Shown here: positions 2,816 to 59,992 of the stretch, piece after piece
Layout: each line of letters opens with the position of its first letter
Numbering within the stretch: position 1 is the first letter of the stretch
IMG/VR virus record: IMGVR_UViG_3300038701_001599
Location: 1 to 64,000 of that record
Reading direction: 5' to 3' (one strand)
Length of the DNA stretch: 64,000 bases
Source: a virus
Notes under the pieces: generated by a model
The model's input: only the letters and a program-made list of their open reading frames with translations
What the model was told of the DNA's origin: nothing
The model's database searches: none
Translations under genes and position numbers: made by a program

Positions 2816-2858
2816 TAGAATAACTGTTTTAATTTTTTTAACTGTAAAACTGTAAATA

Positions 2859-24223: not shown

Positions 24224-24243
24224 TTATAAAATAAAAATAAATA

Positions 24244-25866
24244 ATGAAAATGGATAAAATAGTAACTTTTGATGGTTCTGTTGCACAAAAGTCTGAATGT
24301 AGGTTTATTAAAGGAGACTATTATAAGATAGGCAATCCAAGTATTAAAGATTCTGGGCAGTGTTTTAAACTCTTAAATAATACTACAGGGGAAAGTAAAT
24401 ATTATAGAATTAACTCTGGATATGTAGAATTTGACCACGAACAAAATGAATATGTTTTGAAAAACCAAGAAAACCTAATTCAGGGGTATGTAGATAAGAA
24501 AGGTACAATAGGATTTTTTACCCCTAATCAGTTTAAAAATGTTTATGTACAAACAGAAGCATCATTAACTGGGCGTACAGGTGTGCCATCTACAGGCACT
24601 CCTTGTATTGATGCTGAAACTGCAGAAGGCTTTGCAGACTTTCATAGCCTTGTAGACGGATTTTATTATTATTTAAACCCTAATTATAGTGAAGAAGAAA
24701 TTAAATTAGAGAAGGCGTATCATGAAAAATATAGAAGAAGGACGTCAACTAGAAAAATTTTATATAATAAGTTTGAGGAAAGTTATAATGCTGCAGAATC
24801 TAATATGTTTAAGTACATGATAGATACTTTTGAAGAAAGCCCTATAGATATTACAGAAAAAGCTAATCAAATTCATAGCTTATTAGGAGGACTAAGTTTT
24901 GGATATGAGTGTGAAACAAATTCAGGCAGAGTACCTGAAAAAGAACTTTATTTAAATGGAGTATTACCACTTAGAGATGGATCTATAAATGGACACGAAT
25001 ACACAAGTATTCCTCTAAGAAGCTCCAAGGGTGTCCAAGCTATGATTAACTTTTTTAATGTAGCAAAAGATTATTGTGGAGTAGATCAATCCTGTAGTCT
25101 ACACTTTCATATTGGTAATGTATTTAAAGGACTATCTTTACAAGAAAGAAAAGAACTTATGATTGCTATTTATATGCTGTATTACCAATTACAAGGCGAA
25201 ATTTGGGAAATTGTGCCTCCTTATAAGCGCAGTAATGATTATTTTAAGACAAAACGTGACTTTAAAGACCACTGTCAGCCACTTAGAACACTGGGCTTAA
25301 TGCACAATAGAATTATTACCAGAGAAGGGGAGATAGATGAAAAAGAGCTAGAACGTAGTTTTGCAGACCTCTTTAGATTCTTAAATGACGGTAGGCCTGC
25401 ATGTTCTGATTATAATATTAAGACTAGAACACATCATAAAGCAGGAGCTGCTAAGTGGAATATTACTAGTAGGTATTATGCTCTAAATTTATATAATGCA
25501 GCATTTTCTAAATCAGATACTGTAGAATTTAGAGCATATTCTGGAACAGTAAATCCAGATAAAGCAGTTAGCCTTTTATTAATTAGTGCTGCTATTATTA
25601 GATTTGCTAAAGAAAACACTAGAGAAATTCTCGCCCATAAAAATAAGTATAATTTAGAAGACATAGTATATTGTTATACTGATAATTTTGGACAAGAAAA
25701 AGGAAATAAATTTTATGAATTTGTAGCACAATATCTTATTAACTTTATTAGAGAAAGAAAGTCTAAGTTTCTTAATGCTTTCTTTGCAGATGATTTATAT
25801 GCTAATGAGTTTAAAGATGACTATAAATTTTCATTTTCTTGGGCTAAACAAAAATTATATGAGTAG
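24244..25866 (+). CDS. Glutamine-synthetase-fold amidoligase (Amidoligase_2-like)
   Basis: LSFGYECETN (G.E.E motif), CSLHFHIGN, VEFRAYSGT. Confidence 0.6.
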   Translation: MKMDKIVTFDGSVAQKSECRFIKGDYYKIGNPSIKDSGQCFKLLNNTTGESKYYRINSGYVEFDHEQNEYVLKNQENLIQGYVDKKGTIGFFTPNQFKNVYVQTEASLTGRTGVPSTGTPCIDAETAEGFADFHSLVDGFYYYLNPNYSEEEIKLEKAYHEKYRRRTSTRKILYNKFEESYNAAESNMFKYMIDTFEESPIDITEKANQIHSLLGGLSFGYECETNSGRVPEKELYLNGVLPLRDGSINGHEYTSIPLRSSKGVQAMINFFNVAKDYCGVDQSCSLHFHIGNVFKGLSLQERKELMIAIYMLYYQLQGEIWEIVPPYKRSNDYFKTKRDFKDHCQPLRTLGLMHNRIITREGEIDEKELERSFADLFRFLNDGRPACSDYNIKTRTHHKAGAAKWNITSRYYALNLYNAAFSKSDTVEFRAYSGTVNPDKAVSLLLISAAIIRFAKENTREILAHKNKYNLEDIVYCYTDNFGQEKGNKFYEFVAQYLINFIRERKSKFLNAFFADDLYANEFKDDYKFSFSWAKQKLYE

Positions 25867-40700: not shown

Positions 40701-42276
40701 AAAATTCTGCTAGTCTATATTGAGTTAAGAAATAACCTGTTGCTTTACTTCCTTTAGTTTCTACTAATTTAGAAGTATCTACTACACCTAAGTCATTTAT
40801 TACTTTATTTATTAAGTCTTTACCTAAATTTGAAGTATTACGTAGTATTTTTTGTTTTGCTTTAGCAACTAAAGTATATATAGATCTAGCTATAGGGCTA
40901 GATAAATCTCTAATACTACCAAACCAAGATTGTATAACATTAGCATCAATGTTTTGAGTATCAAATAATTCTTCTTTATTAAAGTCTTCTTCTACATTAG
41001 CATCACTATAAATATCAGATATAACATTTTTAGCCATTTCTGAATGTGCGTCTGTATGAAAATCTTCTACATCTTCTAATGCTGATATTAACCCTCTAAT
41101 AATATTATCAATTTCATTTTGTCTCTCTTGAGAATAATTTGTAAATAGAGGAGAATAATTATTTTTCTTTTTAATTTCTCTTAATAATGGCATGTAGTAA
41201 TCAATAAATTCTTTTAATTGACTAATCTTATTACTACTAACTTCTTTATCTCCTTTTCTAATTTCATTAATATATTGATTAGCTATTCTAACATCATCTT
41301 GTACAAAACCTAAAAATAATTCTAGTCCTTGTTCTTCTTCAGCTCTAGCTAATTTTTCTCTTAGTTTAGTAATAGTATCTCCTACCCTTTGAGTAGTACG
41401 TTGAGCAGCTTTTCTTTTTCTTAAAGAAGTAAGTCTAGCTTCTAATCTTTCTATAGCAGCATTTAAAGCCTCCTTTAAGTCTTTTTGCTGTTCTGCAGAG
41501 AAATATATGCCTTCTGTATTAAAGTCCGTTATAGAGCCTCTATTAGTCTTATTTAGCATATCATTAGTAACACTTTCTATATAACTATTTAGTTGCTCTG
41601 CCTTAGCTTTATTAGAGTTAAAAATACTTAATAATTTATTCCAAAGACTTTCTAAAGTTCTAAACATTCTATAAGAAATTCCTTCTTTTTGATTAGTAAT
41701 AATATTATCTGCTACTAATTTACCTAATATTTCTTTTCTAACTTTAGTTTCTATTTGTTCTGATGTAAGTTCAGGATTTAATTCTTTATAACGAGCAGTA
41801 TATCCTTCTACATTTTTTTTATATTGCTCTGTATCTGCTACTAATTCTAAAACTCTGTCTAATTGTCTAGACTTTGGCATAATAGCAACTCCTAAGTGAG
41901 CTGCTTCCTCTACAAAATCATAGTCAGAAGCATTATCTCCTAAAGCAATTACAGAGTTATTTAAATCTATTAAGGCATTAATTCCTTCTGTAGAAAATTC
42001 TTTACCTCTAATTTTTAAACTAGCCATATAGTCTTCTAATGACTTAGTTTCAAACCCCAGCTCATTAACAAATTCATAAATTCTATTTACAATCTTTTGA
42101 TCTAATTTGGGGGGAGATTGCTCTCCCCCCAAATTTAAATCTTCTAAAGTAGGAAAATATTTTACATTATTTTCAGATTGCCATAAAGATACAGTTACTT
42201 CCATTTCAAACTGAGACATCCCAGAATCTTTTACTAATTGCTGAAATTCAGGATTTGAAATATTAACACAATCCAT
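37732..42276 (-). CDS. Large virion-associated protein (1,514 aa) with degenerate zincin-like N-terminal module
   Basis: Uninterrupted 4.5-kb ORF, 1 nt from the upstream gene. Residues 98-127 are paralogous to the HEXXH region of the 4,593-aa protein but read EEAAH. Long coiled-coil-like K/E regions. Confidence 0.6.
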   Translation of the reverse strand: MDCVNISNPEFQQLVKDSGMSQFEMEVTVSLWQSENNVKYFPTLEDLNLGGEQSPPKLDQKIVNRIYEFVNELGFETKSLEDYMASLKIRGKEFSTEGINALIDLNNSVIALGDNASDYDFVEEAAHLGVAIMPKSRQLDRVLELVADTEQYKKNVEGYTARYKELNPELTSEQIETKVRKEILGKLVADNIITNQKEGISYRMFRTLESLWNKLLSIFNSNKAKAEQLNSYIESVTNDMLNKTNRGSITDFNTEGIYFSAEQQKDLKEALNAAIERLEARLTSLRKRKAAQRTTQRVGDTITKLREKLARAEEEQGLELFLGFVQDDVRIANQYINEIRKGDKEVSSNKISQLKEFIDYYMPLLREIKKKNNYSPLFTNYSQERQNEIDNIIRGLISALEDVEDFHTDAHSEMAKNVISDIYSDANVEEDFNKEELFDTQNIDANVIQSWFGSIRDLSSPIARSIYTLVAKAKQKILRNTSNLGKDLINKVINDLGVVDTSKLVETKGSKATGYFLTQYRLAEFYKEYDEFFDKLKEKYKLEEGQREPYDPKKALEFRKEKNAWLSENTERVYTSDYYDMQNDLSLETREALLYIDVQIKDIENKVRTEDGNVDYYLLSDTDLSKLEDLKIDRKRLSKEYNEDGTKKEGKQLEIAKELNAFYEKINKEREFDVKKEQFEKERKVAKDRYTKEEYEAWLKANSEEVYDKAFWNIISNLEKGEKLSDDIEHLKKKRKEILSPFQNGKMEVNLSKVPETTLEIIRDIDKQIQSITNELYENKQVKKDRKKSNIGLYATTETTAEFREMEEKARRDGKIKEFIAKHYYANYKGKSVPYSYATHLVPRHKKYIIKEAKWKELSKDSKFYNDKYDPSWIGMQPSSKWNNSDYNRLSVNEKAALKELLDTKQRMDNKIPVGTRNAYMLPQISKSFNDLLVGGNLNKENLKELLSDEIFSRVDDDEFGNPDERIDGSVKMYVPIYFTKMLENPGNVSTDLVSSVIKYSQMANNYEEMSKIAPDLEIVKEEFGKVKYKKDSVVKSGVETNTYKMIQTFMEMQVYGKQKQGQADITIPLINRKVNVNKLANGVNSYIRGVNLMFNFFTIASGYINGVANSFIEDIVGKYTTVNAKKKAWGEYITSLPEAIKEFKSINKNNKLNVMLEYFRVVDSFDEIFDDLDKSKIKRITKSDIVYFGYGMADYAMKANISLAVMFNYKLYKDKFYTEANFNQAIKNGTINPVEKYGELTSIYDMMEVKNHKLVVKEEFKNVVKESDLNYLDYTINNLATKADGTLTQLDRAKIHQSTWGQLVATHRGWLIDGIARRYKAKGTNLMTGEIEVGYHREFLNILKSTIMEPNRVANLKKLLTSLDEFEPYQKEAVRRAMLEIIAVGIMSVVAKIINNASDDDDDNWQLEALAYLSNRVLLETSALSLTPTPVPYMELLTVLNSPVAGTKQVEQMLDVMDLIWGSEEVERGPYKGMSKRERYILKQIPGVKGSMSLRDPDSANQFLKYKALNWLY

Positions 42277-42277
42277 A

Positions 42278-45200
42278 TTAACAGTTTTTTAAATATTGTT
42301 CAAATTCCTCCAAAGTAGTAAACTTTTTCTTTTTAGCTATTATTTCGTATCCTTTTCTAAATTCATCATAAGTCATAGAAGGATTTTTTGCAGTTAACTT
42401 TTCTTTAAAAGTGTCCCAAAGACTTTCTAATTTAGCCTCAACTGACTCTGTAGGTATTTCTGTAGGCACTTTAGTTTCAGAAACTTGGTTTTGTTTAAAA
42501 TTAGTAGACGGTTGTGTACCAAACTCATATTGAGTAAACATCTTTCCACTAGTTAATCCACCTTTCTCTCTTGTTTTATAAGTACCTAAAGCTTCTGTAG
42601 GTGCATAAATAGCAGCTTTATCTCTAGTACTTTTTAAAGTTAATAATACTGTTTCTTTATTTACTGTAGCTTTAATATAATTTACAAATTCTCCGTCTTT
42701 ATTTAAAAATTCATTACTTTCATTTCCTATAACAACATATTGTAATTTATTATTTTCTAATTTAAATGTTCTAATATTAGATTTATTTTCAATATCTGCT
42801 CTAGGTATATAAGCTAAACTTCTAAAATGGTTTCTTACAAACTGATGAAAGAAATGACTAACATATTGAGAGTAGGCTCCAACACCATTATCTTGATCTA
42901 CCTGTATTGCTTCTGCTGCTTTAATCTGATGCTCCATATTTTTATTAAAATCAGGCAAGAAATCAGTATAAAACCCAACAGGTTGCAAATGACTAAAACT
43001 TTGAGGAGATATTCTAAATCCTGCTACCATAAAAGAATACTTAATTAAGTCTTTAGCTAAATCAGAATATTTATAATCTCCTGATAATGCTGTATCATCA
43101 TATAACATACTTTCCCAAGTATCTCTAATTACGTCTACTACTTTTTTATCTTGTCCACTAATACCAGTATAAACAATATAAGTAATATTATTGTTTTTGT
43201 CTACATCTAAATTTAATCTATTTAGTAATGGAGAATATTTATCACTATAATTACTGTTTAAATCTTTAGCAGTACTTAAGTTTTTACTAATAGTAGCTAT
43301 TAAATTCTTATCAAAAGCAAAGAAAGGATCAGTACTTGCTAAATAATCTAAATAGTTTTTATTTATAAACTCAATCTCTTTAACTGTTAAGTTAGTATCT
43401 GCTTTATAGTTATTAAACATTTGTCTTAGTAAATAAAAAGCCCCAGTGTCTCTGTCTGGTAAATATAACTCTCCTTTATTTCTATCACCAATAATTAATT
43501 TTCTACCATTTTCAATAACCCTATTTAAATGATAAGGAAATAAATCAGTACGATTTAATAATTCTTCAGCTCCTTCTAAACCTTCAAAATTGTAGGCTTC
43601 AAGTTGGTCTAATCTATATAAGTTATCAGAGTCACTAGGGCCTAAACCTTGTTCACCTATTTTAACAGCGGTAACTAAATTAGAAATAGGTTTAGATAAC
43701 TTTTTATAAATTAAAAAAGTTTTTAATAACTTAGCAGACGTATCAGAATCTAATTTAGTAGCTACGTTATCTTTTAGAAAATCTGTACTAAACTCAGTTA
43801 TATTACCAGAATTAACATTCTTCTTTCCTATATTAAACTCTTTCTTATTTATTCCTAACTTTAAAGCCGCTTCTTCTTTGGCTAAATTCTCAGCTTTTAC
43901 ATTAGCCCCATTATTAAAATAACTAATGGTAAAATCTTCAATTACTTCTTGTGATAAAAAGTATTGAATAGTATCTAAATCAATTCCAGACAAAGCCATT
44001 CCCATAGCTACATCAATAGTATAACTATTTATATTAGAATACTTAGCTTGTGGGTCTTTTCCGTTATCTACAAATGCTGCAAGAGTTTCTGATATAACTT
44101 TAGTAATTAACTTAGATTTTCCTACTACATATTGTAAGTTTAAGTCTGAATATTCTTTACCATCAAATTTAAAAGGAGTCTTTAATTTAAGAGTAGAAGC
44201 TAATTGAAAAATAGCGTGAGCTGCATTAGCATTAGCACTGACACCAATCAAAGCTTTACCAGTTAAGTTTCTATCTGATATTTCAGCATGGGTACTAGGA
44301 GACATTACATTTACTTTTTCTATAAATTCATCTCCTTCTTTAGTAAACTTTCTTTTACCAGACTCCATTTTAGCCTCATTAATAACATTATTATTTGCTT
44401 TGATAGTATCGAAATTACCAGGAGATAAGAAAGATTTAGTTCCTTTTGTACTTTCTAAAACTGATCTCATTAATTCTAGCTTTCTATTATCTCTAGTTTT
44501 CTTGTTATCTAAAGTATTAGGATTAATCTTTTTATTCTTATGGTCTGCATTATAAAAGAATCCATATACTTTATCAATGTCGAAATCCAAGCCAGCTATA
44601 GTAGTAACTTCAGGTGGAAGTACAATAGTACCACCAGTTTCTTGCGGTAAGAAACCTTTAATTCTTATACTAAAAGTAGAATATTTATCTTCATTAGGAA
44701 TCCTCCAAACTATTCCTCTTAATGCTTTTTCGCTAGCACCTTTTCCATAGTCTTTATCAAACTGTTTCTCATTAAATTTACCATTTTCATCTATATAAGG
44801 ATATAATTTTTTATCATATACAGGCGCATAAGCTTCCATATAATTTAAACTACCGTCTTTATTAAATACTAATTTAGGTTTATCTCTAAAGCCATAAGAG
44901 GACATATTAGCTAATGTAACGCCATTTGTTAACTCTTGCCTTGTTACACCCTTAGTAAATAAAGAATTAAGCATAGACTCGATTCTATACAGGTGTAAAG
45001 GATGCCATAATGGTAGTTTAGTATTTATAACTTCTGTTACATTACCGCCTACATCAGTAACTTGTTCTTTCCAATAATCTAATGCTTGTAAGTATTGATC
45101 TCCTAAATCTCTTTTTATAACTTCTTCTCTTAAAGTATTTATTAAAGAATCAAAGTTATCAAACTTTTTAGAAACTTTAGAATAGCTTTCTTGTATATCT

Positions 45201-48200: not shown

Positions 48201-51200
48201 GCAGTTACTTCTGCTTTACTAGGAAATAATAAATTATTTTTTACTATGTCTTTAATTGGAGTATCAGGATTTTGCTCTCTAAAAGTACTTAATACATCAT
48301 CTAATACAGAAGTCATAGTATCTATAACTCTCTGATATTCAGCAGGATTAGGATATAATGGATGCTTTTTAAACTTAGGTAGTATACTAGAAACATCTCT
48401 TTTAAATTCTTTATTAGCAAATTGTCCCTCATTAATTCTCCAAAATAATTGATCTATTGTAGGTTTATTATTAACTAAAGATTGTATAAACTCTAGTAAA
48501 TTTTTAAATACTCTTTTTATTCTAGAAGGCAGACTAATAGAAGTTTTAGAATTTTTCCACTTTTTAAAGTTTTCAATATCTTGCTTAGTACCTAAACTAT
48601 AAATATTTTCTGAACGAGGAGTAAAGTAGTCTAAGTTACCTATATCCCACTTAGTCTCTGCATTTTTTAATATAGCTAAAGTAATGTTTTTACTAACATC
48701 AGCATTGGCCTCTGTATCTAAAATAGATCTAGAATATTGTTCTGCTAAATCCCTTTTTGCAGTAAAGTAAAAGTTTAAATCTGATGGAGTACCAAATCCT
48801 TCTCCAATAAAAGAACTATCAAATTGTTCAATAACGCCTTCTTTATAACTACCGTGATATAAGATATTAGAAAACTCACTACCTGAAAAATTACTACTTA
48901 AATAATCTAAATATTCAGTAGTAGTTCCAACCTTAGCTAATTCTTCGTTATTTTTAAATAGAAAATTTACTGCGTTTTTATTATGAAAAGAATGAGTCTT
49001 TGTAAATTTATTTTGAGACTTAACATATTCCATAAAATCATCTGCTAATTTTTCTTCTAATACTAAATCTTTAGCTTCTGTTTCTGAAATATCAATACCA
49101 GACTCTTTTACTTGAGCTATCATATCAGAAACTTCTTTAGAACTAACATTATATCTTTTATCTGCTGCCCTTAATATTCTACCTGCCTCCTTTTCAGAAA
49201 GGTACATATTAAATACAGCGTGGAAAGCTTCGTGATAAGTAGTACCAGCTTGAGCAGACTCTAGTAGATGTATAACACCATTATAAAATGCACCATATCC
49301 ATTTATTCCAAACTGCTTTAAAAATGTTAAAGAGTCGTATACTTTATTACTTACATTTGGTAAATTTTCTTTTAACCAAGCTAGTTCTTCTTCTTTATTC
49401 CATACTTCTCTAGGCTTATTTGAATCTACTGTTTTAAATTTAGGAATTTCAACTCCTAGTTTTTCTAATTTATTTGATACATCCCATACATAAGGATCAA
49501 CAGATGTACCTATAGATTCTGGATTAAACTCAGTAGACTCTGAGTCTGGTAATACAAAAATAACAGAGTCAGAATTTAAATTTGGTTCTACAAAGCTTTT
49601 CCAATTTTCAATAGATACACTAACACACCCAAAACTAGCTTTATTGTCTTCTATATTACTTGACTTTAAATTCTTAATAGTGCTCTTAATATTAGGGTGA
49701 AATGCGTTTATAAGACCTCCAGAATTAGTTCCTTCTAGGGCGTAAATATATTCAGACCCGTAATCCGTATTGTCTAACTTACTTAATTTAAAAGTTCCTG
49801 CAGGAGTAATTTTAGGAATTCCTAATTGATTATAATAATTATAAGGATTCTTAAATTTAGCTTTACCTTCTGGTGTTAAATTTTCCCAAGCAATACTTAC
49901 TTTAAATTGTTGATCTCCATAGTTTGCTCCAAAAATACTTGGAAATTCTTTTACTAAATTATTAGAAGAGTCAAATATTAAAACTCTGGCATTGGGTTTA
50001 TCTGCAATAACATAACCAGACTTTAATTCTCCTTTGTTAAAATTGTTTTGCTGTAAAGCATATACTTTTGCAGCATTTCCTGTTAGTGTAAGATTATCTA
50101 CAGATATACTATCTTGATAATTAATAACACCATTAGCAGCTCTAGTAAAAAACTCAGATTTTTCTATTTTAGTATCAGGAGAAATAAATGCAGTATTAGT
50201 AAAATATAAACTAGAAATAACTGCTACGGATAATATAGCTTTAGAAATTTTCTTAATAATGTCTTTAATTTTAGACATGACTCTCTTACCAGTATTATAA
50301 TTTACTACTTGATTAGAAACAAATTTTTCTAAAGTAGAATTATCTTGACTATTTGATACATCCTGTTTAGCTTCTTCATAGGCTTCTTCTAAGGCTATTT
50401 TTTCTTTAGTAAGTAAATTTTCTACTTGCTCTCTAATTTCTTTTAGAGCAGGAACTTTAGGTTCCTGAGGAGTATCTTTTTTAGTAGCTCTCTTCCTACG
50501 CATCATTTCTAAAGGAGATAGTACTTTTCCTTCTACTGGAGATTCTCCTGTTTCAGTTGGCTTACTTTCTATAGTAGTTTCTGGAGTGTTAACTCTCTTT
50601 TTGTTGTCAACTACTTTTGAAACATCAAGTGCCTTATTTACTTCTATTATTTGTTCTTGAGTAGATTGTAAGGGTTGTTGAGTACCTTCTACTGTAGTAG
50701 TACTTACAGAAGGAGTAACTTTACTTAAAATCTTTTCTCTAGTTTTACCACTCTTGAATCTCTCTTTACCTTTAGTAGTTTTACCTAAAGATATGATTCT
50801 ATTATCTGGTAACACATAATAAGAAGTATTAGCATGGTCTACTTTTCTACCAGGGTCATAATCTTTTTTAACTAAATACTTATTAATAGTAGACTCGTCA
50901 GTAACCTCATTACCATTATCGTAGAAGTATTTACCATCTTTTTCAGTAATAATAAATTGCTCTACTTTAATTCCTTTAGTTGTATCTTGGTCTGTAGGTA
51001 CTTGAGTTTCTAAAGAAGCTAATTCTGCATCATATTTAGCGTTAATTTTATTATAAGTAGTTTCTTGTAATATATATTTGCCAGCACTTACACTAATACC
51101 AAACTTTTCTTTTACTAATTCACTTATTTCTTCAAAAGTTTTTCCTACCTTCATTAGTGCTTTAACATAAGATTGCGCTTTCTTAGAATCCTTTCTATCT

Positions 51201-54200: not shown

Positions 54201-56059
54201 TCATTTTTATAAGCATCCTTTTGTACTTCTAGCTGACTAGGAGTTTGTGCTTTAGTAGCTTCTGTTTGAACCTCAGATAATCTTTCTTGTCTAATCTGTT
54301 CTGCTTTTTCTTTTTTAACTTCCTCTCTTTTTTCTTTGCTATTGAACTCTTTAAACTCTTTTCTAGCAGTATCTAAATTGTTTTCAGCAGTTACTACTAA
54401 ATTAGCTAGTCTTTCTATAATAGTATCATTAGAAGTAGGAGTAGGACTACCCTTTTCAGTTTCTTTTAATTGTCTAACTTCTTCTTCATACTTTTTAATT
54501 AAGCTTTCATTTTTAGCCTTCTTAGCTGCTTTAAGCTTCTCTGCTGCACTTTTCTTTTGAGCATTAATATCAGTCTCATATTGAGATAATTGAGAGCTTA
54601 CATCAGATATATATTCTTCATTAAATCTTTGGGCAAATAAGTTTTTAATCTTTTTTTCTTTAACATCAGGATCAGCCTCATTAATAGAATTAGCTATCTG
54701 ATCGTAATAGTCTATATAAGAAATAGCTTTTTGTGAATTTTCAGCCTGCTCTGGAGTAACTCCTTTTGTATTAATAGCATTTTGAAAACTCTTTTTTAAC
54801 ACATCTAATTTACCTTCTTGAGCATGTTGGTTAATAACATCATAAACATGTTGATTATTAACTTCAGCTAGCTTATATTGATTATTATCACTTTGGAATT
54901 TCTGAGCTTTTGTCATTTTACTCTTATAATTATCTGCTATTCTAGTAGCAGCCTTACCTACAGCAGTAAATACAGCACCACCTAAAGCACCTTGTACCAT
55001 AGCTTGCTGCATTTCTGTATCACTAAGCCCATCTAAAAATTCATTAAATATAGTACTATCTTGTTTCTTTTCTCCAAGTCTATAAGCTATTTCATTTTTA
55101 GCCTCTTGAGCTACTGCATATTGATAACCTTCTTCAAAAGCTTCACTGCCCATCTGACCTCCTAAACTAGCAACTCCTTTTAACTTAGAAAACTTACCAG
55201 CAGTTCCTAAAGCATTTAATATACCATTAAATTGCAGCATATCTACTGCTGCTAACATAAAGTTATTAGTATATACTCTAGCAGAAGCATCTCCAGCTAA
55301 CTTCTTAGCTTTTTCTTCACTATGGCCTTTTCTAATTAAATCAGCATAAGTAGAATTAAATGTTTCATAGGCTTCCATACCTCCTTCAATCATTCTAGAG
55401 GTAGCCGCCATTCTAGCAGACTTAGTTAATTGTGCTGCTTTAGAACCACTCTGAATCCATGCTTCAGCATTAGCAATATGCTTACCTACTTGGCCTACTT
55501 TACTAAGTCTACTAGCTAATGCAGGATATGCTAAACCTTCTGTTAAAAATGTAGCTGCTAACATAGCTACTGTAGGGCCAAATTGTGCAATAGTATTAGC
55601 TGTCCACTCTCCATCAAAAGGATTAAACAAAGTTTCTTTACTAGCCTGATCCCTATAAATAGGAGCAGCTTCTTCTCCTACTCCTTTTAGCCAGTTTCCA
55701 GCATCTATAAATATATTATCCATTTCTTCAGAACTTCCAAATACTGGGGCTACTGCTCCTACACCTTCAAATACGTAACCAGGAGTAGCTATAATATCTC
55801 CTACAGTACCAGTTACTAATTGTACAAAAGAGTTTCCAATAGCTTTCCAATTACTTTGTTGCCTTGCTGCATAATCATCTTGGTTTAGTCCATGTACTAA
55901 TCCGTCATCATAATCTGTACTACCAAATAAACCTTTAGTTTCACCTAAAGTTCTAAATTCTCCTATTACATCAGAACCAGGTACATATCCTCCTCCATGA
56001 GATCTACCTATTTTTAAAGTCTTACCTTTACCAGGATTTTTAGACTTATTATCTTTCAT
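42278..56059 (-). CDS. Giant polyvalent virion-cargo protein (4,593 aa): YkuD-like, zincin HEXXH, ART-like and beta-prime-type DPBB RNA polymerase motifs
   Basis: Uninterrupted 13.8-kb ORF. TPAGTF...FHPN...SFGCVSV (Cys2145); YHEAFH (2276-2280); LYHGS..FYFTA..Y (His2402); RIPNEDKYS..IVLPPEVTTIAGLDFDIDKV (Asp3825/3827/3829). Confidence 0.7.
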   Translation of the reverse strand: MKDNKSKNPGKGKTLKIGRSHGGGYVPGSDVIGEFRTLGETKGLFGSTDYDDGLVHGLNQDDYAARQQSNWKAIGNSFVQLVTGTVGDIIATPGYVFEGVGAVAPVFGSSEEMDNIFIDAGNWLKGVGEEAAPIYRDQASKETLFNPFDGEWTANTIAQFGPTVAMLAATFLTEGLAYPALASRLSKVGQVGKHIANAEAWIQSGSKAAQLTKSARMAATSRMIEGGMEAYETFNSTYADLIRKGHSEEKAKKLAGDASARVYTNNFMLAAVDMLQFNGILNALGTAGKFSKLKGVASLGGQMGSEAFEEGYQYAVAQEAKNEIAYRLGEKKQDSTIFNEFLDGLSDTEMQQAMVQGALGGAVFTAVGKAATRIADNYKSKMTKAQKFQSDNNQYKLAEVNNQHVYDVINQHAQEGKLDVLKKSFQNAINTKGVTPEQAENSQKAISYIDYYDQIANSINEADPDVKEKKIKNLFAQRFNEEYISDVSSQLSQYETDINAQKKSAAEKLKAAKKAKNESLIKKYEEEVRQLKETEKGSPTPTSNDTIIERLANLVVTAENNLDTARKEFKEFNSKEKREEVKKEKAEQIRQERLSEVQTEATKAQTPSQLEVQKDAYKNDTEALDILKAVENNKAKAEVGNTKEPITTDVDTILDYYKDKPFARKRKFNVNTQDELISKLGPASTTETTNEEKGKKFLEGAAKAQKEEAAKKAKEESKGKPEAKESKSTPNVKNTEGEADIKAEIAELEAKIVKLKNEKATAKKSQGPLIQQEIRDIESLIEKLKRPSTVPIPKSLRETVVPVIIKGKEYTIFDNDAIDREVTFVNIDGKTYGFYRSSSGTSGKQAGNWYPFYGLSNWVIKDGWADKAKTQWTFNSEASAELQSKLEEAANKLNKEWNSKKLPKKSIPYLDATAAELNKALGLPIDENVSYKKDIKERNKLKKYVAENGFGIKISIKQPEKVPENTPVQEEPAEPEPATTQTTPKEKPIKQILNESVENETRKEAKLSEVEQVPQIEEINNSESEELEQTFENEDGKDQSYAQVYDTGLFKFQKFKGQWGIYLNHIQGGFIPVDAVEEVRDGNGDYLYHKVDSSSINQYHIPKKLRINEYYPLKDSKGYPIKSTFGNVIRDYNIDAVKELYKYKDEEVFIEIDTQDNFNATQQSGRIRIDYVIYPNGVRTVIGVMPAVKEYSKDSYKEIRQQIFNELIANNRTPNTESKTFRYSKSTKIGKILGGRFNTFYDKSQRNNPKSVINDNNPLILGVGYNIPGNFDSYDIHLNLNVEDNRENNLQPPNSKLAEFAKDKPIKKGRLTTGQPYVLVRNANNDLIPIRVFSKPVKSVPRLRDKLLNLIREFKKDAAAEIIKFNVVNKKGVKKLIPDFDNNLSDIYSGVKVVLADGKIQFKSQLGGANFSIQKNSEGVEYSTKGLTEGMILVDTTSNTNYQLTEKVNGKWQVQKLDSNFNKVGESTSAEFLNEAMAQGNIELHYAYNYYMFYDMDNRPLQIDHKKVNIGNYNETVANERLESDLVPKNNFASPKFQVDLNTLRKKEQPKKKEAAKKEVPKNIEQRKKDIEKRRKEELSKANKQYKGDELVELELTPEGELGFRVQGWIEIRNDLVKKLDRKDSKKAQSYVKALMKVGKTFEEISELVKEKFGISVSAGKYILQETTYNKINAKYDAELASLETQVPTDQDTTKGIKVEQFIITEKDGKYFYDNGNEVTDESTINKYLVKKDYDPGRKVDHANTSYYVLPDNRIISLGKTTKGKERFKSGKTREKILSKVTPSVSTTTVEGTQQPLQSTQEQIIEVNKALDVSKVVDNKKRVNTPETTIESKPTETGESPVEGKVLSPLEMMRRKRATKKDTPQEPKVPALKEIREQVENLLTKEKIALEEAYEEAKQDVSNSQDNSTLEKFVSNQVVNYNTGKRVMSKIKDIIKKISKAILSVAVISSLYFTNTAFISPDTKIEKSEFFTRAANGVINYQDSISVDNLTLTGNAAKVYALQQNNFNKGELKSGYVIADKPNARVLIFDSSNNLVKEFPSIFGANYGDQQFKVSIAWENLTPEGKAKFKNPYNYYNQLGIPKITPAGTFKLSKLDNTDYGSEYIYALEGTNSGGLINAFHPNIKSTIKNLKSSNIEDNKASFGCVSVSIENWKSFVEPNLNSDSVIFVLPDSESTEFNPESIGTSVDPYVWDVSNKLEKLGVEIPKFKTVDSNKPREVWNKEEELAWLKENLPNVSNKVYDSLTFLKQFGINGYGAFYNGVIHLLESAQAGTTYHEAFHAVFNMYLSEKEAGRILRAADKRYNVSSKEVSDMIAQVKESGIDISETEAKDLVLEEKLADDFMEYVKSQNKFTKTHSFHNKNAVNFLFKNNEELAKVGTTTEYLDYLSSNFSGSEFSNILYHGSYKEGVIEQFDSSFIGEGFGTPSDLNFYFTAKRDLAEQYSRSILDTEANADVSKNITLAILKNAETKWDIGNLDYFTPRSENIYSLGTKQDIENFKKWKNSKTSISLPSRIKRVFKNLLEFIQSLVNNKPTIDQLFWRINEGQFANKEFKRDVSSILPKFKKHPLYPNPAEYQRVIDTMTSVLDDVLSTFREQNPDTPIKDIVKNNLLFPSKAEVTAEDLADNLILSLDNENSVYNKVLDRMAELDSQDILDEETAQQFNDFLNALAVPVEKEDGTISLRPKLLAFDILKNLSSRGIIINLDTRKLEEDEFGRAEIEPDNTDFVEENDMREAWQILSFTISQLDKLGEKLKFEFNKIPVVKWSDTSKTEVTPVEGFLSFNKHYNLGHVYRQVQQVAGNSFSRLNMENKLRTAALSKPMFKYIMDTYGSDNDFLGLLWIHIGQKQHPKFVSAIQDKDRGKVRSKVIPTNAVSKVNKITENLVGSLFTNSSLFTSTGKPNVEKAKEVNSKFNKIKEVIKNHYSNNAGKKLPDNILESFYEALQSINLSIPIEALEYANDRNNKDFRKVMTNKTNSIYSFIENIANGKDPIEEGNDGIKNFVKQISSGYDYDVQDAHKNSTGGQVYEWLDSNFLGRTILELKDKVAGIKKIQSLQQDMYYQFSPLLNLIKNGHSETPNNIDYYLNPNEINFAIPSEIKMVGESLPTEYSNMSERQLYINLLMLYYNSNHVGNKAYLPLPVHADSPTMTAIEIPVIKNLNTKETGQKGILDYLNDAAYQELVRVNLDRTTTKNQKSKNRDSNGNSKFLFFDVLESNTPTFKGLNKKKELLSLDLEQDQDRIREILAEVVEEQYNNTLIAERTKMEELNIISYNSEKDKYEWKDDLLNNTPVEVFAEHFVANFMLFQNQFTGLFNGDLSYYKNVGDYYKRAKQIWSPGTYLDTTQTRVNFNAKILKTNAIDKNMKESSYDAIYAAALALYGDESVAKKVAAPYEKGVDETDAQSYIDLFRYKEQQDGLHRWSNTKEQSYRRLLKGEFNIQDMENLELFNVNKPFYFGFHYNDATKEVYPVQNKNSEAIIIPAFANPNNTFYNSKFKEMLLDMGYNENGTIDNIEEFEAKRRAPNNNLTDQFVFDSAIKLGLFGESDNIKEAKTHKFNNSDWRLQMETPIHHVNDKVVFATQVRKHMLNDLEMDSKIYRDPDNPSNMITGAEWLEKYNEVIIKDIQESYSKVSKKFDNFDSLINTLREEVIKRDLGDQYLQALDYWKEQVTDVGGNVTEVINTKLPLWHPLHLYRIESMLNSLFTKGVTRQELTNGVTLANMSSYGFRDKPKLVFNKDGSLNYMEAYAPVYDKKLYPYIDENGKFNEKQFDKDYGKGASEKALRGIVWRIPNEDKYSTFSIRIKGFLPQETGGTIVLPPEVTTIAGLDFDIDKVYGFFYNADHKNKKINPNTLDNKKTRDNRKLELMRSVLESTKGTKSFLSPGNFDTIKANNNVINEAKMESGKRKFTKEGDEFIEKVNVMSPSTHAEISDRNLTGKALIGVSANANAAHAIFQLASTLKLKTPFKFDGKEYSDLNLQYVVGKSKLITKVISETLAAFVDNGKDPQAKYSNINSYTIDVAMGMALSGIDLDTIQYFLSQEVIEDFTISYFNNGANVKAENLAKEEAALKLGINKKEFNIGKKNVNSGNITEFSTDFLKDNVATKLDSDTSAKLLKTFLIYKKLSKPISNLVTAVKIGEQGLGPSDSDNLYRLDQLEAYNFEGLEGAEELLNRTDLFPYHLNRVIENGRKLIIGDRNKGELYLPDRDTGAFYLLRQMFNNYKADTNLTVKEIEFINKNYLDYLASTDPFFAFDKNLIATISKNLSTAKDLNSNYSDKYSPLLNRLNLDVDKNNNITYIVYTGISGQDKKVVDVIRDTWESMLYDDTALSGDYKYSDLAKDLIKYSFMVAGFRISPQSFSHLQPVGFYTDFLPDFNKNMEHQIKAAEAIQVDQDNGVGAYSQYVSHFFHQFVRNHFRSLAYIPRADIENKSNIRTFKLENNKLQYVVIGNESNEFLNKDGEFVNYIKATVNKETVLLTLKSTRDKAAIYAPTEALGTYKTREKGGLTSGKMFTQYEFGTQPSTNFKQNQVSETKVPTEIPTESVEAKLESLWDTFKEKLTAKNPSMTYDEFRKGYEIIAKKKKFTTLEEFEQYLKNC

Positions 56060-56063
56060 TTAT

Positions 56064-57977
56064 CTACTCTCTATTTAGCGGTTCATTATTTAATTTTTTA
56101 AATTCACTACCCTCTTTTCTATATATATTAAATCCTTTTGTAGTGTACTCCATTTTATAAGTACCTCTAGAATTTATATATTCTCCTAAACCGTTAGGTA
56201 CTTGTCTGCCATCACTAGTAGTATAGACTTGAGGCATTGGAGGTAATTCTTCTACTACACTAAAATTATTAAGGGGAGATTGTTGTGCTCTATACATCAT
56301 ATTTAAACCATATTCAGGCTTCTGTTTGTCATACATTAAAGGCTCTGCTCTATACTCTTTGTCTCCTATTTGAAAAGTTCTAGTACCATAAGGAAGCATA
56401 GATTCTGGTTGGGACACTTTAGTTTCTACATTAGGCATTCCTTCTTTTTTAACCTGCTTCATTAATTCTGTTCCAGAGACAGGGGACTTGTCTTCTTGGC
56501 TATAAACTTTTAAATTTGAAATAAATCCTGGAGTAGCTTGGTTATCATTATTAAAGGAATTAAATAAAATACTGTTTTCTAATTTCTTTTGTTTCTCATC
56601 AAATATTAGAGAAGAGGTTGCAGAAATAGTAGCCCTATCTAATTCTTGATTAAAATAATTACCTAAAGTATTTATTTTTTCTTGCTCATTCATTGGAATT
56701 TTTTCCCCATTTTCATTTTCTTTAACAAACATACCTCTTTCTTCTAGAATTTGTACAGTATTTTGAAGTTGTGGACTATTTAAAGGGTCTTTTATAACCT
56801 CGTCTTTTCCAAATAAACCTCTAATGGCAGAGTCAAACATCATACCAATTCCTGTTGGAGTTAATCCTTCTACTGCCATTACTCCAGCTCTATAATCTTT
56901 CTCTTTTTTAGCTTTAGAACCTTTTAATTTAAATGCCCCGTCTTCAGTAATTTCAACTTTATCTGCAAACATTCCCTTACTTGTATTAAAAGGCTGCGTC
57001 AATACAGCTAAATTAGACATTCTTTCACTTTCTTCTACAGCCCTTTTTGCTTTCCACATAGCCCAATCATTAGTAATTACTTTGTCGGTAACGTCATCTT
57101 CTTGGAAAGCAGTGCCTCTAGTAATACCTTGCAACAATTGTCCTAAAGAAGTATTAGCAAATTTAACTCTTCCCTGTTTATCTTGAACAGGCATTCCATC
57201 TTCATCTACTTCAAATATTTGGCTTTGATTACCTTCAAGACCATAAGCTTCTCCTAATACTTGCTCACTAGCTAAAATTTCAGGAGTAGTTTGTTCTGCT
57301 AAAGCCATAGCTGCTTTATTCCAATCTATAAATTTAGTTTTATTTCTTACTAATAAATCTTTAAAGCTTAATCCCTTTAAAGCGTTTCTATCTAAAAAAG
57401 CATCTCCTACTATCTGATCTGCTGAAATATTTCCAACTACTTGGTCATAATATTTCATTTTTTCTTCAGAGCTTAATACTTTAGTTAAATTAGGATTTCC
57501 TATACCATAGTTACCAGCATTTGCTGCTTCTTCATAAGGACTAATTTGTATTTGATTTTTATAATAATTTGCTACTCTAGGATCATCGTAAGTTTCGTCT
57601 ATTTTTTTATTTATACTTTCTATAGTCTCTAGTCTTTTTTGAAAAATATCTGCTTTACCACCAGGTTGCCAATCTCTTGATATTTCTCTCAACAATTCTT
57701 TTCTTCTTCTATTTCCTGCACTAACTCCTTCATCTGAATAACTTTGTGCTAAGCCGTCTATTTTACTTCTAACACTACTCATATAGTCTTCTAAAGCCAT
57801 TCTTTCTTCTGGAGATTGATAATGTTTAGGTACTTTTTCTCCTACTGCTAAAGCTTGGTCATAAGTTTGCTGTTGACTACCTAAAGTAGTAGCCAACGCA
57901 GCAAAGTCTGGAACGTAAGTTTGAGGAACATAATTACTTCTAACAGGAATTATTTGCCTAAAACGATTAATAGCCAT
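56064..57977 (-). CDS. Virion-module hypothetical protein (637 aa)
   Basis: ORF track; 4-nt and 2-nt spacers to its neighbours. No recognised motif. Confidence 0.65.
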   Translation of the reverse strand: MAINRFRQIIPVRSNYVPQTYVPDFAALATTLGSQQQTYDQALAVGEKVPKHYQSPEERMALEDYMSSVRSKIDGLAQSYSDEGVSAGNRRRKELLREISRDWQPGGKADIFQKRLETIESINKKIDETYDDPRVANYYKNQIQISPYEEAANAGNYGIGNPNLTKVLSSEEKMKYYDQVVGNISADQIVGDAFLDRNALKGLSFKDLLVRNKTKFIDWNKAAMALAEQTTPEILASEQVLGEAYGLEGNQSQIFEVDEDGMPVQDKQGRVKFANTSLGQLLQGITRGTAFQEDDVTDKVITNDWAMWKAKRAVEESERMSNLAVLTQPFNTSKGMFADKVEITEDGAFKLKGSKAKKEKDYRAGVMAVEGLTPTGIGMMFDSAIRGLFGKDEVIKDPLNSPQLQNTVQILEERGMFVKENENGEKIPMNEQEKINTLGNYFNQELDRATISATSSLIFDEKQKKLENSILFNSFNNDNQATPGFISNLKVYSQEDKSPVSGTELMKQVKKEGMPNVETKVSQPESMLPYGTRTFQIGDKEYRAEPLMYDKQKPEYGLNMMYRAQQSPLNNFSVVEELPPMPQVYTTSDGRQVPNGLGEYINSRGTYKMEYTTKGFNIYRKEGSEFKKLNNEPLNRE

Positions 57978-57979
57978 AT

Positions 57980-59992
57980 TTATTTATCATTTAGTCTGGT
58001 AAATACAATTAATTCTTGATCTGACAAATCTTCAGGACGCATTTGACCTTTAGACACTTTTATAAGGTTACTTACCATATCATTATTTACATCAAAATCA
58101 GGAGCTATCATATTAAGTAAAGCCTTTCCTTCTTCAATCTTAGCAGCAGTAATATTTCTAACATCCTTAGCAGTACTAAGTCTATCTGCTTCAGCAACAA
58201 CATCAGCCATAAACTGTCTGCGAATATCTTGACTTCTAGCTTTATTTTGTAAGTTTGCTACTTGTTGCTCTTGTTCTATATTTCTTACTACATTAGCCTT
58301 ATTAGCTTCGTATTGTCCTTGTTGTCCTAATATCTGATTACGCATCTGCTGTTCTTGCATTCCTATTCTACCTAATTGATCTTGTAAATTGCCTATATTA
58401 GAAAGTTCTCTAGCTCTAAATTGAGAGTAACTAGAACTTGCTCCTCTGTTTAGATCACTAGCTCTATTAGAAGCGCCTGTAACATCTTGTCTAGCTTGGT
58501 CTAAAGTTGCATTCATAGCATTAATTCTTTCATCAGATTTAGAATAATCTGGAGTAATAAGTCTATCCTCTTCAGCAGGCTGTAAAGCATCAATACCAGA
58601 AGCTACTAGTCCTGCAGTTCTAAGTATTTGATCTAACCCTATTCCAGATTTATCTGTATTAGGAGTATTAGCAGGATTAACATTTACATTTGGACTAGGA
58701 ATATTACTTAGATTCATTTCTGGCATAGTGTTAGTAGATGCACTCATACTTTCTACTTGATCGTTCCCTCTAGTAAAAAGTTCTGGAATTGGTCTAAACA
58801 TCTCTATCCTATTATAAGGATTGTCTGATAATGAAAAATCTAATGGTTTAAATGTAGGAACTTCTTGTATATTTTCATAACCACTCATTGGGCCAGTTAA
58901 AGGGTCTTGAGGTGGCATACCACCAGATAAAGAACCTCCTGGAGCATATTTAGTTTTACCACCATACCTCATCTGAACCATATTAGATACAGCATTCTTA
59001 GCAGCATTTATAGTCTCATTAATATCTTCTACGCCCTTAATTTCCATTTCCATTGCTGCCTTAGAAGTTAAATCTGTATCAGGATTTTTATTTTTATATT
59101 TAGAAATAATATCTTTTACCATATTAGAAGTCTGATTAGCATCACTAAACACATAATTAGTTCCAACCTTATCTGGTAAGGTACTATATTTATATGAATT
59201 TTCTGTACCTTCTATTTCAGCGACAGGGTTTTGAGTATCTGGAACTCCTTCTTTATTAACCATCTGTCCTCCCATTTCGTGACTAGGAGCATTATATTGT
59301 TTAAATCCAGATACTTCTCCTCCATCTTTCATTTGCTGATTCATAGTATAAATATCAGTATTACCTTCTTGATTCATACCCATTTTAGCAACTCCTGCTA
59401 CTCCGCCAATTGCTGTGCCTAAACCAGGAGTAATTAAATTTAAAGCAGGAGCAAATTTTTGTAAGAAGTTTAAACCTCCTCCTTTTTCCATTTGTAATTT
59501 TGGAGCATAATTACTATTAGTATCTACTGGAGATTGTTGAGTTGGAGTGTACTCTTGCCTTAGTTCTTTTGCAAACTCTGTGTTAGGATACTGTTGCATA
59601 TAATTAATAGCAGAATTACCTTTATTTACTAGTGCCTTTTTATAATTAGTTACGGATTGATTATAAGCTTTATCTGCTTTTGCCATAGCATTAGGATCAT
59701 AAGAGTCTCCATAAACTTTTTGGCCTAAATAATTAGCTATATTATCTAATATACCTCCATCTTCTTTTTTACCTTCTCTTTTATTTTTTAAGTGAACATT
59801 TGCCCACAAACCTCTACGAGTTTCTCTTCCATCTTCAGTAACATAAGTATTTTTATTTTTTAAATATCCGCCTTTTTTTAATTCTTGTACTGCTCCACTA
59901 TTAATTAAGTCTCTAATAATTTCTGCAGGGTTTTTAAATTCTCCTACTTTAACTTTTTCAGTAAAGTTCTTTTTGTTATTTCTTATTGCCAT
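57980..59992 (-). CDS. Virion-module hypothetical protein (670 aa) with repeated QMxxGG motifs and C-terminal coiled-coil-like region
   Basis: ORF track; QMEKGG, QMKDGG, HEMGG, QMRYGG, KKGGY, EDGGI. Confidence 0.65.
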   Translation of the reverse strand: MAIRNNKKNFTEKVKVGEFKNPAEIIRDLINSGAVQELKKGGYLKNKNTYVTEDGRETRRGLWANVHLKNKREGKKEDGGILDNIANYLGQKVYGDSYDPNAMAKADKAYNQSVTNYKKALVNKGNSAINYMQQYPNTEFAKELRQEYTPTQQSPVDTNSNYAPKLQMEKGGGLNFLQKFAPALNLITPGLGTAIGGVAGVAKMGMNQEGNTDIYTMNQQMKDGGEVSGFKQYNAPSHEMGGQMVNKEGVPDTQNPVAEIEGTENSYKYSTLPDKVGTNYVFSDANQTSNMVKDIISKYKNKNPDTDLTSKAAMEMEIKGVEDINETINAAKNAVSNMVQMRYGGKTKYAPGGSLSGGMPPQDPLTGPMSGYENIQEVPTFKPLDFSLSDNPYNRIEMFRPIPELFTRGNDQVESMSASTNTMPEMNLSNIPSPNVNVNPANTPNTDKSGIGLDQILRTAGLVASGIDALQPAEEDRLITPDYSKSDERINAMNATLDQARQDVTGASNRASDLNRGASSSYSQFRARELSNIGNLQDQLGRIGMQEQQMRNQILGQQGQYEANKANVVRNIEQEQQVANLQNKARSQDIRRQFMADVVAEADRLSTAKDVRNITAAKIEEGKALLNMIAPDFDVNNDMVSNLIKVSKGQMRPEDLSDQELIVFTRLNDK

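Follow-up and report, generated by a model that had tools for sequence, protein, structure and literature searches.

The giant gene and its phage lineage

The window analysed here is the whole 64-kb stretch formed by positions 1 to 64,000 of IMG/VR virus record IMGVR_UViG_3300038701_001599. Its minus strand carries, between positions 42278 and 56059, one uninterrupted open reading frame (ORF) that encodes a giant protein of 4593 amino acids (aa). An initial annotation, made from the letters of the sequence alone, had described the middle of this protein as part of a polyvalent cargo protein in which a YkuD L,D-transpeptidase-like domain, a zincin peptidase with an HEXXH motif and an ADP-ribosyltransferase (ART) follow one another in tandem. 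Every motif quoted in that description was recovered by translation at the residue and nucleotide positions given for it. The minus-strand ORFs flanking the giant matched virion structural PHROGs, and DNA polymerase and exonuclease families were matched by plus-strand ORFs of the window.

When compared by BLASTP with proteins of phage crAss001, residues 2217–2368 of the giant aligned with gp47 (residues 2094–2258; E = 1e-16) and residues 3306–4470 with gp50 (residues 977–2240; E = 2e-44), the latter alignment including the motif DFDID at residue 3825. A 1514-aa ORF downstream of the giant aligned with gp49 (E = 9e-34). Based on the gp47 and gp50 matches, the giant is a gp47-like protein (gp65-like in phage phi14:2) fused to a gp50-like virion RNA polymerase (vRNAP). 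By homology, the gp47-like half runs from residue 1 to approximately residue 2560 and the two-barrel RNA polymerase (RNAP) from approximately residue 2510 to residue 4593; the DFDID motif, assigned as catalytic by its homology to gp50 and other crassvirus RNAPs, occupies residues 3825–3829 (44573–44587, minus strand). The RNAP part matched 76 crassvirus records by tblastn. The region flagged in the initial annotation, with its YkuD, HEXXH and ART-like segments, forms the C-terminal end of the gp47-like half. The fusion is real and not an artefact of assembly, since P0008, a protein of 5417 aa, is a collinear orthologue of the giant (32–41% identity), since P0061 and P0091 also join YkuD and RNAP-like regions, and since Dulem virus 41 has the same order, but as adjacent separate genes.

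Crassviruses are the most abundant phages of the human gut. Judged by its sequence, the source of the window is a deeply divergent crAss-like (Crassvirales-type) phage, because the closest annotated RNAPs, those of Steigviridae, share just 25–28% identity with that of the giant; identity to the crAss001 proteins is likewise only 25–30%. The gene block and gene order of crAss001 gp47/gp49/gp50 and phi14:2 gp65/gp66/gp67 are shared with the window, as are the DFDxD two-barrel vRNAP and the gp49-like ORF downstream, so that both sequence homology and synteny with the crassvirus transcription and cargo gene block place the giant among Crassvirales gp47/gp50 cargo. A megablast search of INPHARED with 20 kb of the window gave zero matches, a pattern scan of IMG/VR with the window region found no relatives, and the giant protein was found on one Logan contig.

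In crAss001, gp47, gp49 and gp50 are virion cargo as determined by mass spectrometry (PMC10172136), and by analogy the giant would be packaged in the virion and delivered with the DNA. The description as polyvalent virion cargo was supported by the homology to crAss001 gp47 and gp50, and by relatives that carry LPD37, LPD38, LPD39 or ART-PolyVal domains; YkuD, HEXXH, ART-like and RNAP parts are all encoded by the one ORF, which lies amid virion-protein genes. Polyvalent proteins (PMC5512222) are likewise giant, virion-delivered proteins in which unrelated enzymes are assembled around a zincin-like metallopeptidase (MPTase), and they draw on the same ART-PolyVal family. Among them, the vRNAP of Roseovarius Plymouth podovirus 1 combines RNAP, MPTase and ART in an architecture like that of the giant (PMC5512222). 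N4-like vRNAPs contain a T7-like polymerase, whereas that of the window is of the crassvirus two-barrel type.

The YkuD domain, its putative anchor helix and its relatives

Residues 2015–2170 (49550–50017, minus strand) constitute a real domain of the YkuD fold, that of the L,D-transpeptidase and L,D-carboxypeptidase superfamily. Its motifs are VIADKPNARVLIFD (residues 2017–2030), ITPAGTFKL (2084–2092), FHPN (2120–2123) and ASFGCVSV (2141–2148), and its predicted catalytic residues are His2121 (49697–49699) and the nucleophile Cys2145 (49625–49627). Pfam profile PF03734 matched residues 2015–2154 over profile positions 2–132 of 146 (E = 2e-4; 22.3 bits). In an alignment of 112 sequences, G2044, G2088, H2121 and C2145 were invariant (H2121 in 112/112), D2020, K2021, T2085 and G2144 were conserved at 96–99%, and S2142 was also conserved; K2021, T2085, H2121 and G2144 were invariant in a second alignment (A1, 29 rows). 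The catalytic His/Cys motif of YkuD enzymes is therefore present in the form of H2121 and C2145 accompanied by S2142 and G2144. The subfamily can be described by the signature I.DK..A...FD / TTPAG / H..Y..R..L.S....DN.S.GCIN.

The initial annotation had proposed modelling as a check, and the AlphaFold2 model built on alignment A1 was of high confidence, with a predicted local distance difference test score (pLDDT) of 89.9 and a predicted TM-score (pTM) of 0.85. When the model was searched against the PDB with Foldseek, all of the top 50 matches were YkuD-fold enzymes, nearly all at a probability of 1.00 (the lowest at 0.97), with Pgp2 the best (6xj7; E = 3e-6). The L,D-carboxypeptidases Pgp2 and Csd6 came first, followed by mycobacterial and enterococcal L,D-transpeptidases (Ldts), Bd1075, Bacillus subtilis YkuD and DpaA. 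Matches in BFVD included one protein annotated as 'Large polyvalent protein associated domain-containing protein' (E = 3.6e-13), a LysM protein from marine virus NIOZ-UU157, another protein with a Tlde1 domain and, from Podoviridae, an 'L,D-TPase catalytic domain-containing protein'.

Several observations weigh against the assignment. The score of 22.3 bits is about 1 bit below the Pfam cut-off of 23.4 bits; the domain has T2127 in place of Arg and S2147 in place of Asn at positions that are 93–99% conserved in the subfamily; its His-Cys spacing is 24 residues as compared with 16–18; and its TM-scores to solved YkuD structures are only 0.4–0.55, for which reason we regard it as a divergent member of the fold. 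Homologues scored above the cut-off (P0016, 32.7 bits; P0090, 30.7; P0010, 30.5; P0021, 30.0; the pSTEC648_2 protein described below, 27.2; P0061, 26.4), and the agreement of profile, homologue family and predicted fold confirms the YkuD-like domain of the initial annotation. Searches of PHROGs and NCBIfam returned nothing for the YkuD, HEXXH or ART segments. One competing match, to NHL repeats (phmmer against the PDB, E = 1e-6), was rejected when it was traced to a single 30-residue strand motif that matched five propeller blades and corresponds to the canonical first strand of YkuD.

Approximately 65 residues upstream of the domain lies a hydrophobic or amphipathic helix (residues 1934–1959; 50183–50260, minus strand), which may anchor it to a membrane. 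Hydropathy on the Kyte-Doolittle scale peaked at 1.68 over residues 1941–1959, the sole strongly hydrophobic segment in the giant, and a comparable segment was located 55–115 residues upstream of YkuD in nearly all of the 106 homologues examined. The hydrophobic segment noted in the initial annotation, AILSVAVISSLYF, is part of this helix (residues 1941–1953, nt 50201–50239); it is present as described but sits slightly above the upper end of the interval 48731–50032 to which the modules had been assigned, and at the other end the ART-like segment runs past that interval to approximately residue 2499 (nt 48563).

The giant is almost devoid of cysteine. Only Cys2145 and Cys4593, the C-terminal residue (42281–42283, minus strand), are present where about 45 would be expected from the 0.98% Cys content of the other window ORFs (Poisson P = 3e-17). 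The same pattern of two cysteines was observed in P0008, P0029, P0040, P0022, P0024 and P0078, and in P0013, P0020 and P0057 the YkuD cysteine is the sole one kept. A terminal or near-terminal cysteine recurs in the former six proteins, in P0061 and P0091, and in five Steigviridae gp47 proteins, of which it is the sole cysteine; in Steigviridae it stands in or near gp47's own tail, whereas in the window it closes the whole fusion. That the nucleophile was spared while nearly all other cysteines were lost points to selection on catalysis by the YkuD domain and, at the level of sequence, lends indirect support to a predicted activity on peptidoglycan stem peptides. The cysteine purge itself would suit a protein that has to traverse both the tail and an oxidising periplasm in an unfolded state, and a purge that spares the nucleophile and a C-terminal cysteine could serve as a sequence signature of ejected cargo. 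An interaction between C2145 and C4593 was considered and dropped, the Steigviridae gp47 proteins keeping the terminal cysteine without having a YkuD domain. Prenylation, suggested by CaaX-like endings (CLAI, CASI, CIAF), was also rejected as implausible in bacteria; other members end in NC, KC or RCS. Neighbours of the giant are depleted of cysteine as well: ORFs of 637 aa (56064–57977) and 670 aa (57980–59992) have none, and the gp49-like ORF (37732–42276) has one.

An exhaustive homologue search with the YkuD segment returned 160 representative clusters at E ≤ 1e-3. Most of the YkuD query was covered in 135 clusters, with a protein length of 1400 aa or more in 48 and below 700 aa in 82. A word-indexed homologue search with the YkuD-only segment found no relatives, no YkuD domain was found in Steigviridae gp47 proteins, and tblastn of two central subfamily members against GenBank phages gave no matches; seven plasmid or chromid records were matched by tblastn with YkuD subfamily members. 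The Escherichia coli phage-plasmid pSTEC648_2 (CP061838.1; L006, 5755–12711) encodes a 2318-aa 'hypothetical protein' with a YkuD domain (27.2 bits) and LPD38. Its gene adjoins those for a GH104 protein, a holin and a lysozyme, and it could therefore serve as a tractable model. Megablast of the pSTEC648_2 region against the complete E. coli genomes of RefSeq gave no match. Other YkuD giants carry LPD37 or LPD39 and ART-PolyVal.

A small member of the subfamily, P0009 (399 aa; L016, 10001–11200, from JGI contig 3300025317), has an internal hydrophobic helix and lies among genes of cellular type, encoding a CCA-adding enzyme, KsgA, UvrD and a LysM-M23 protein; the proteins on either side of it, of 802 and 830 aa, are unannotated. 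Members of the subfamily thus occur outside mobile elements too. A pattern scan of IMG/VR with P0009 found no relatives.

The initial annotation had considered an L,D-transpeptidase fold an unusual choice of wall-active module. This is accurate for annotated phage lytic proteins, among which PhaLP holds just 10 YkuD entries, but not for unannotated giants, in at least 48 of which the domain recurs. The wall-directed domains named in the main text of the survey of polyvalent proteins are lysozyme, SpoIID, DD-peptidase and zeta kinase; neither YkuD nor L,D-transpeptidases are mentioned there (PMC5512222).

The HEXXH module and its ART-like insert

The HEXXH module is encoded in two parts. The N-terminal part (residues 2199–2348; 49016–49465, minus strand) is predicted to comprise a helix, three strands, the helix bearing the HEAFH motif and a Glu-bearing helix. 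HEAFH (H2276, E2277 and H2280; 49220–49234, minus strand), which lies within the segment TTYHEAFHAVF (residues 2273–2283) noted in the initial annotation, was at least 90% conserved in alignment A3 and was present in every gp47 homologue inspected. In the LEExxAExF helix, E2335-E2336 (49052–49057, minus strand) provide a candidate third metal ligand, E2335 being the sole invariant column of alignments A3 and A4 and E2336 being at least 90% conserved. The C-terminal part (residues 2505–2562; 48374–48547, minus strand) consists of predicted helices ending in WRINEGQFANK (pLDDT 73–87), a region that aligns with an FFKxL...YxxINxGxY segment in all HEXXH homologues.

This module is widespread in crassviruses: it closes gp47 in crAss001, cr112, cr128, cr85 and Dulem virus 41, the C-terminus of crAss001 gp47 being homologous to it, and HEAFH and the downstream Glu were nearly invariant in 12 crassvirus homologues. 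The proteins returned by the first homologue search (P0001–P0007), which are C-terminal parts of crassvirus gp47-like proteins, align only to residues 2174–2401 and 2496–2553. In the AlphaFold2 model built on alignment A4 (8 rows), the core reached pLDDT 83–93 and showed an alpha-beta-beta-beta-alpha(HEXXH) topology with the Glu helix later (model elements H33-43, E48-52, E67-70, E73-77 and H84-97, with HEAFH within H84-97). The predicted order of elements is that of the zincin core (PMC5512222), and the HEXXH motif is both placed in a predicted helix and conserved across homologues.

Profile and fold searches weigh against calling the module a zincin. It matched no Pfam, NCBIfam or PHROG family and so, in contrast to the MPTases of polyvalent proteins, fits no Pfam MPTase family; neither the A3 profile nor phmmer with the HEXXH and ART segment found anything meaningful in the PDB; and Foldseek with the half-disordered model gave no significant match, the best of zincin type being PprI at E = 6.9. 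An hhalign comparison with the C1 domains of N4-like vRNAPs produced a local and weak match around the strand-loop-HEXXH region (30–32 columns, E of about 3e-3, probability 10–12%). The zincin of the initial annotation is made plausible by the conserved HEXXH and Glu residues and by the zincin-like predicted topology, but not confirmed by profile or fold searches. The module is most likely a gluzincin-type metallopeptidase. Orthologues of gp65 had already been described as having a zincin-like protease domain (10.1101/2020.03.07.982082), an annotation traced to Yutin et al. 2018 by way of its citation in that preprint, by Drobysheva.

The module's position, exactly at the gp47/RNAP junction, is consistent with a function in cargo processing or activation. 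Fusion of gp65, gp66 and gp67 occurs in some crAss-like phages, and the resulting polyprotein was described as 'likely cleaved' (10.1101/2020.03.07.982082); the initial annotation's putative cleavage into a wall-remodelling enzyme, an ART and the RNAP repeats this published hypothesis. MPTase domains have been argued to process polyvalent proteins commonly, the processed P1 DdrB being the cited case (Iyer et al., PMC5512222). The best-placed alternative is that the chain is not cleaved and acts whole, the HEXXH module being structural or regulatory, or else an effector protease whose targets are host proteins or the peptides of peptidoglycan; the full 4593-aa chain could then be packaged and ejected as such and span the envelope, its YkuD domain periplasmic and its RNAP cytoplasmic. 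The vRNAP of N4, which has an HExxH C1 domain, is described as one virion protein of about 3500 residues (PMC13434306), so an HEXXH domain does not of itself imply self-cleavage. Steigviridae gp47 is a separate protein with the module at its end, leaving no downstream part to be freed; the mass spectrometry paper on crAss001 virions gives gp47 at its full 262.5 kDa and does not mention processing (PMC10172136); and the digestion of peptidoglycan has been offered as an alternative role (Drobysheva preprint, 10.1101/2020.03.07.982082). Against an uncleaved chain stand the position of the module at the junction in the fused forms and the precedent of the polyvalent MPTases, and with these in view we consider it a tenable possibility, to be held tentatively, and continue to favour processing or activation.

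Two observations on other HEXXH-bearing proteins may be recorded. The tail of Steigviridae gp47, KKGWTxExWxxISxEEReQAIrC(xx), is conserved (crAss001, L001, 12500–12747; L002–L005); this tail is absent after the HEXXH module in the window giant and in P0008. On a further crassvirus contig, ENA ANDE20-1 scaffold_336, P0004 (721 aa; L015, 10001–12166) combines the HEXXH module with an N-terminal PD-(D/E)XK nuclease domain, and the 6.3 kb upstream of it (L015, 3681–10001) are free of called genes, possibly because a stop codon has been reassigned.

The ART-like segment (residues 2377–2499; 48563–48931, minus strand) resembles a reduced ART-PolyVal domain. Its motifs are LYHGS (residues 2400–2404) and FYFTAKRDLAEQY (residues 2430–2442), with a distance of 29 residues between H2402 and Y2431. 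Pfam PF18760 (ART-PolyVal; Tox-ART-HYD2 clade) matched residues 2399–2454 with E = 2.4e-5, at 25.6 bits as compared with a cut-off of 31.2 bits. In all three MAFFT modes tried, H2402 and Y2431 aligned with the YHGT motif and the [YF] residue of cr85, P0057, P0008 and P0003, and the BLAST alignment to P0008 agreed. The Y-x10-Y spacing is kept, and genuine ART-PolyVal domains in related proteins show the spacing H...[YF][FL][TSA]x8[YF] as well. Two collinear stretches matched P0008 by BLAST (2377–2442 to 1637–1701, E = 2e-5; 2466–2499 to 1956–1987, E = 1e-3), in which jackhmmer placed an ART at 1659–1710 and 1909–1975, split by an insert. The initial annotation had thus found the right superfamily, with H2402 and Y2431 retained, but had chosen the wrong clade in proposing a PARP-type H-Y-E core, since the active site of ART-PolyVal is H-Y-D.

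The tandem order proposed for the modules did not stand, in that the ART-like segment sits inside the HEXXH module and not after it. HEXXH homologues skip this segment, which occupies the loop connecting the Glu helix to the module's final helices; in cr85 and P0003, by contrast, the ART follows the HEXXH module. Bona fide ART-PolyVal domains were located after the HEXXH module of cr85 gp47 (82.9 bits), 250–400 residues past the YkuD domains of P0057, P0092, P0122 and P0048, and in a 3261-aa vRNAP-like protein near P0004 (L015, 16305–22166). A further alignment (A2), in which MAFFT had wrongly placed ART-only rows onto the HEXXH module, was not used for modelling. The loops of the module accept other material as well: the loop after the Glu helix (residues 2349–2504 in the giant, nt 48548–49015, where it contains the ART-like domain) carries an insert of about 45 residues in crAss001 gp47 (approximately 2215–2260), and in P0008 about 520 unrelated residues (approximately 2500–3020) are inserted into the loop before the Glu helix.

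An active, host-modifying ADP-ribosyltransferase would be compatible with the PF18760 match, with the conservation of H2402, Y2431 and the Y-x10-Y spacing, with the possible acidic residues D2472, D2477 and E2484, and with the full ART-PolyVal domains present in the corresponding proteins of relatives. We nevertheless think it rather unlikely. The match is confined to profile positions 8–52 of 140; the segment is about 40 residues short and lacks the NDGxI strand seen in 6/6 full domains; the acidic residue is not clearly aligned, its candidates varying with the alignment register; and the pLDDT over the insert is only 31–50, a low value that arises because the 8-row alignment A4 left the insert without alignment depth. 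A cr85-seeded hidden Markov model (HMM) of the ART domains of relatives did not retrieve the segment, jackhmmer started from the segment found nothing even in the local set, and a word-indexed homologue search with the ART-only segment found no relatives. We regard the insert as probably the decayed remnant of an accessory domain that moves between these proteins; having lost a conserved strand, it is probably weakly active or inactive.

A possible role in opening the host wall

The DNA of a crassvirus and its cargo proteins, which form a set of about 500 kDa, must cross the bacterial envelope, and the crAss001 atlas offers just a hypothetical model of the ejection (PMC10172136). Combining the observations described above, we propose the following sequence of events, to which we assign a probability of roughly 0.55. 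The giant would be ejected through the envelope during infection, as suggested by crAss001. The helix at residues 1934–1959 would hold the YkuD domain at the membrane, facing the periplasm, where the Cys2145/His2121 pair would attack peptidoglycan stem peptides. Hydrolysis, as an L,D-carboxypeptidase or endopeptidase in the manner of Csd6, Pgp2 or Tlde1, would open the wall locally for the ejection conduit. The HEXXH module would process or activate the cargo at the gp47/RNAP junction, and the ART-like insert, which retains the His and Tyr of the NAD site, would be weakly active or inactive.

Hydrolysis is favoured over transpeptidation because the nearest structures are L,D-carboxypeptidases, because the injected YkuD effectors of the type VI secretion system (T6SS) are L,D-carboxypeptidases, and because entry requires that the wall be opened. 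The fold and the His/Cys pair are shared with Csd6 of Helicobacter pylori, Pgp2 of Campylobacter jejuni, Bd1075, DpaA/YafK and Tlde1/Tae5, and the last of these, which are T6SS effectors, show that a YkuD-fold enzyme can be injected and attack the wall in the periplasm. The window domain differs from these hydrolases in its low identity (7–17%), its distinct subfamily motif, its longer His-Cys spacer and its position behind a hydrophobic helix within a 4593-aa protein.

Were the domain instead a true transpeptidase, it could link a phage or host protein to peptidoglycan, or remodel cross-links so as to staple the conduit into the wall. In E. coli, LdtA-C (ErfK, YbiS, YcfS) attach Braun lipoprotein to peptidoglycan. 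L,D-transpeptidases have this fold and this His/Cys pair, and cellular Ldts (LdtMt2, Ldtfm, B. subtilis YkuD and E. coli LdtA-E) share with the window a near-full profile match. A membrane anchor followed by YkuD is the usual layout of cellular Ldts, and small cellular homologues of the window domain exist. The SxGCIN of the subfamily also resembles the SHGCVN motif of LdtMt2; cellular Ldts have Arg/Asn after GC-h where the window domain, set in phage cargo, has Ser. The best structural matches (Pgp2, Csd6, Bd1075 and DpaA) are hydrolytic, however, as are the known injected YkuD-fold weapons (Tlde1/Tae5), and an incoming phage must open the wall, not reinforce it. For these reasons we judge transpeptidation to be improbable. 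Less probable still, and offered as speculation, is a version in which the anchor helix and a YkuD transpeptidase staple the conduit or cargo to host peptidoglycan, with the cysteine purge serving redox or thiol control of cargo release; if true, it would amount to a covalent link between phage and cell wall during genome delivery, which has not been described before. That the motifs arose by chance in a long, compositionally biased protein without such domains is a notion to which we give almost no credence: every Pfam match in the window is under its gathering threshold and the spurious NHL-repeat match shows that short strand motifs can mislead, but the reading is refuted for YkuD by catalytic residues invariant in 112 homologues, a high-confidence model and exclusive YkuD-fold matches, and for HEXXH by conservation across crassvirus families.

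Parts of this account are not new. Publications already cover the fusion into a polyprotein, a zincin-like domain and the proposal of cleavage, and the zincin and polyprotein parts of the present analysis add little to these. Apparently undescribed are the presence of a YkuD module in crassvirus cargo, its repeated occurrence in polyvalent proteins, the insert topology of the ART-like segment and the cysteine purge with its conserved terminal cysteine. A text search of the accessible literature found no paper linking YkuD or transpeptidase domains to crassviruses or polyvalent proteins, and no report of ART-PolyVal in crassvirus cargo proteins. For the question of ejection, this lineage points to a testable, putatively peptidoglycan-active domain within the cargo, with a single predicted essential cysteine. 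The anchor-plus-YkuD module recurs in unannotated giants, among which are the E. coli phage-plasmid protein and polyvalent proteins that carry LPD and ART-PolyVal domains. YkuD merits a place among the wall-directed domains of polyvalent proteins and in the repertoire of peptidoglycan enzymes associated with virions, in which it is seldom found and insufficiently annotated.

Other features of the giant and of the window were also recorded. The stretch of the giant best conserved with P0008 is residues 43–493 (nt 54581–55933; 40% identity), and its N-terminal region contains three Gly/Ala-rich, mildly hydrophobic segments (residues 89–107, 164–182 and 267–285). On the plus strand, adjacent ORFs at 22058–25866 match phrog_4736 (glutamine amidotransferase-like) and phrog_2443 (amidoligase); by these matches, they may be nucleotide- or DNA-modification genes.

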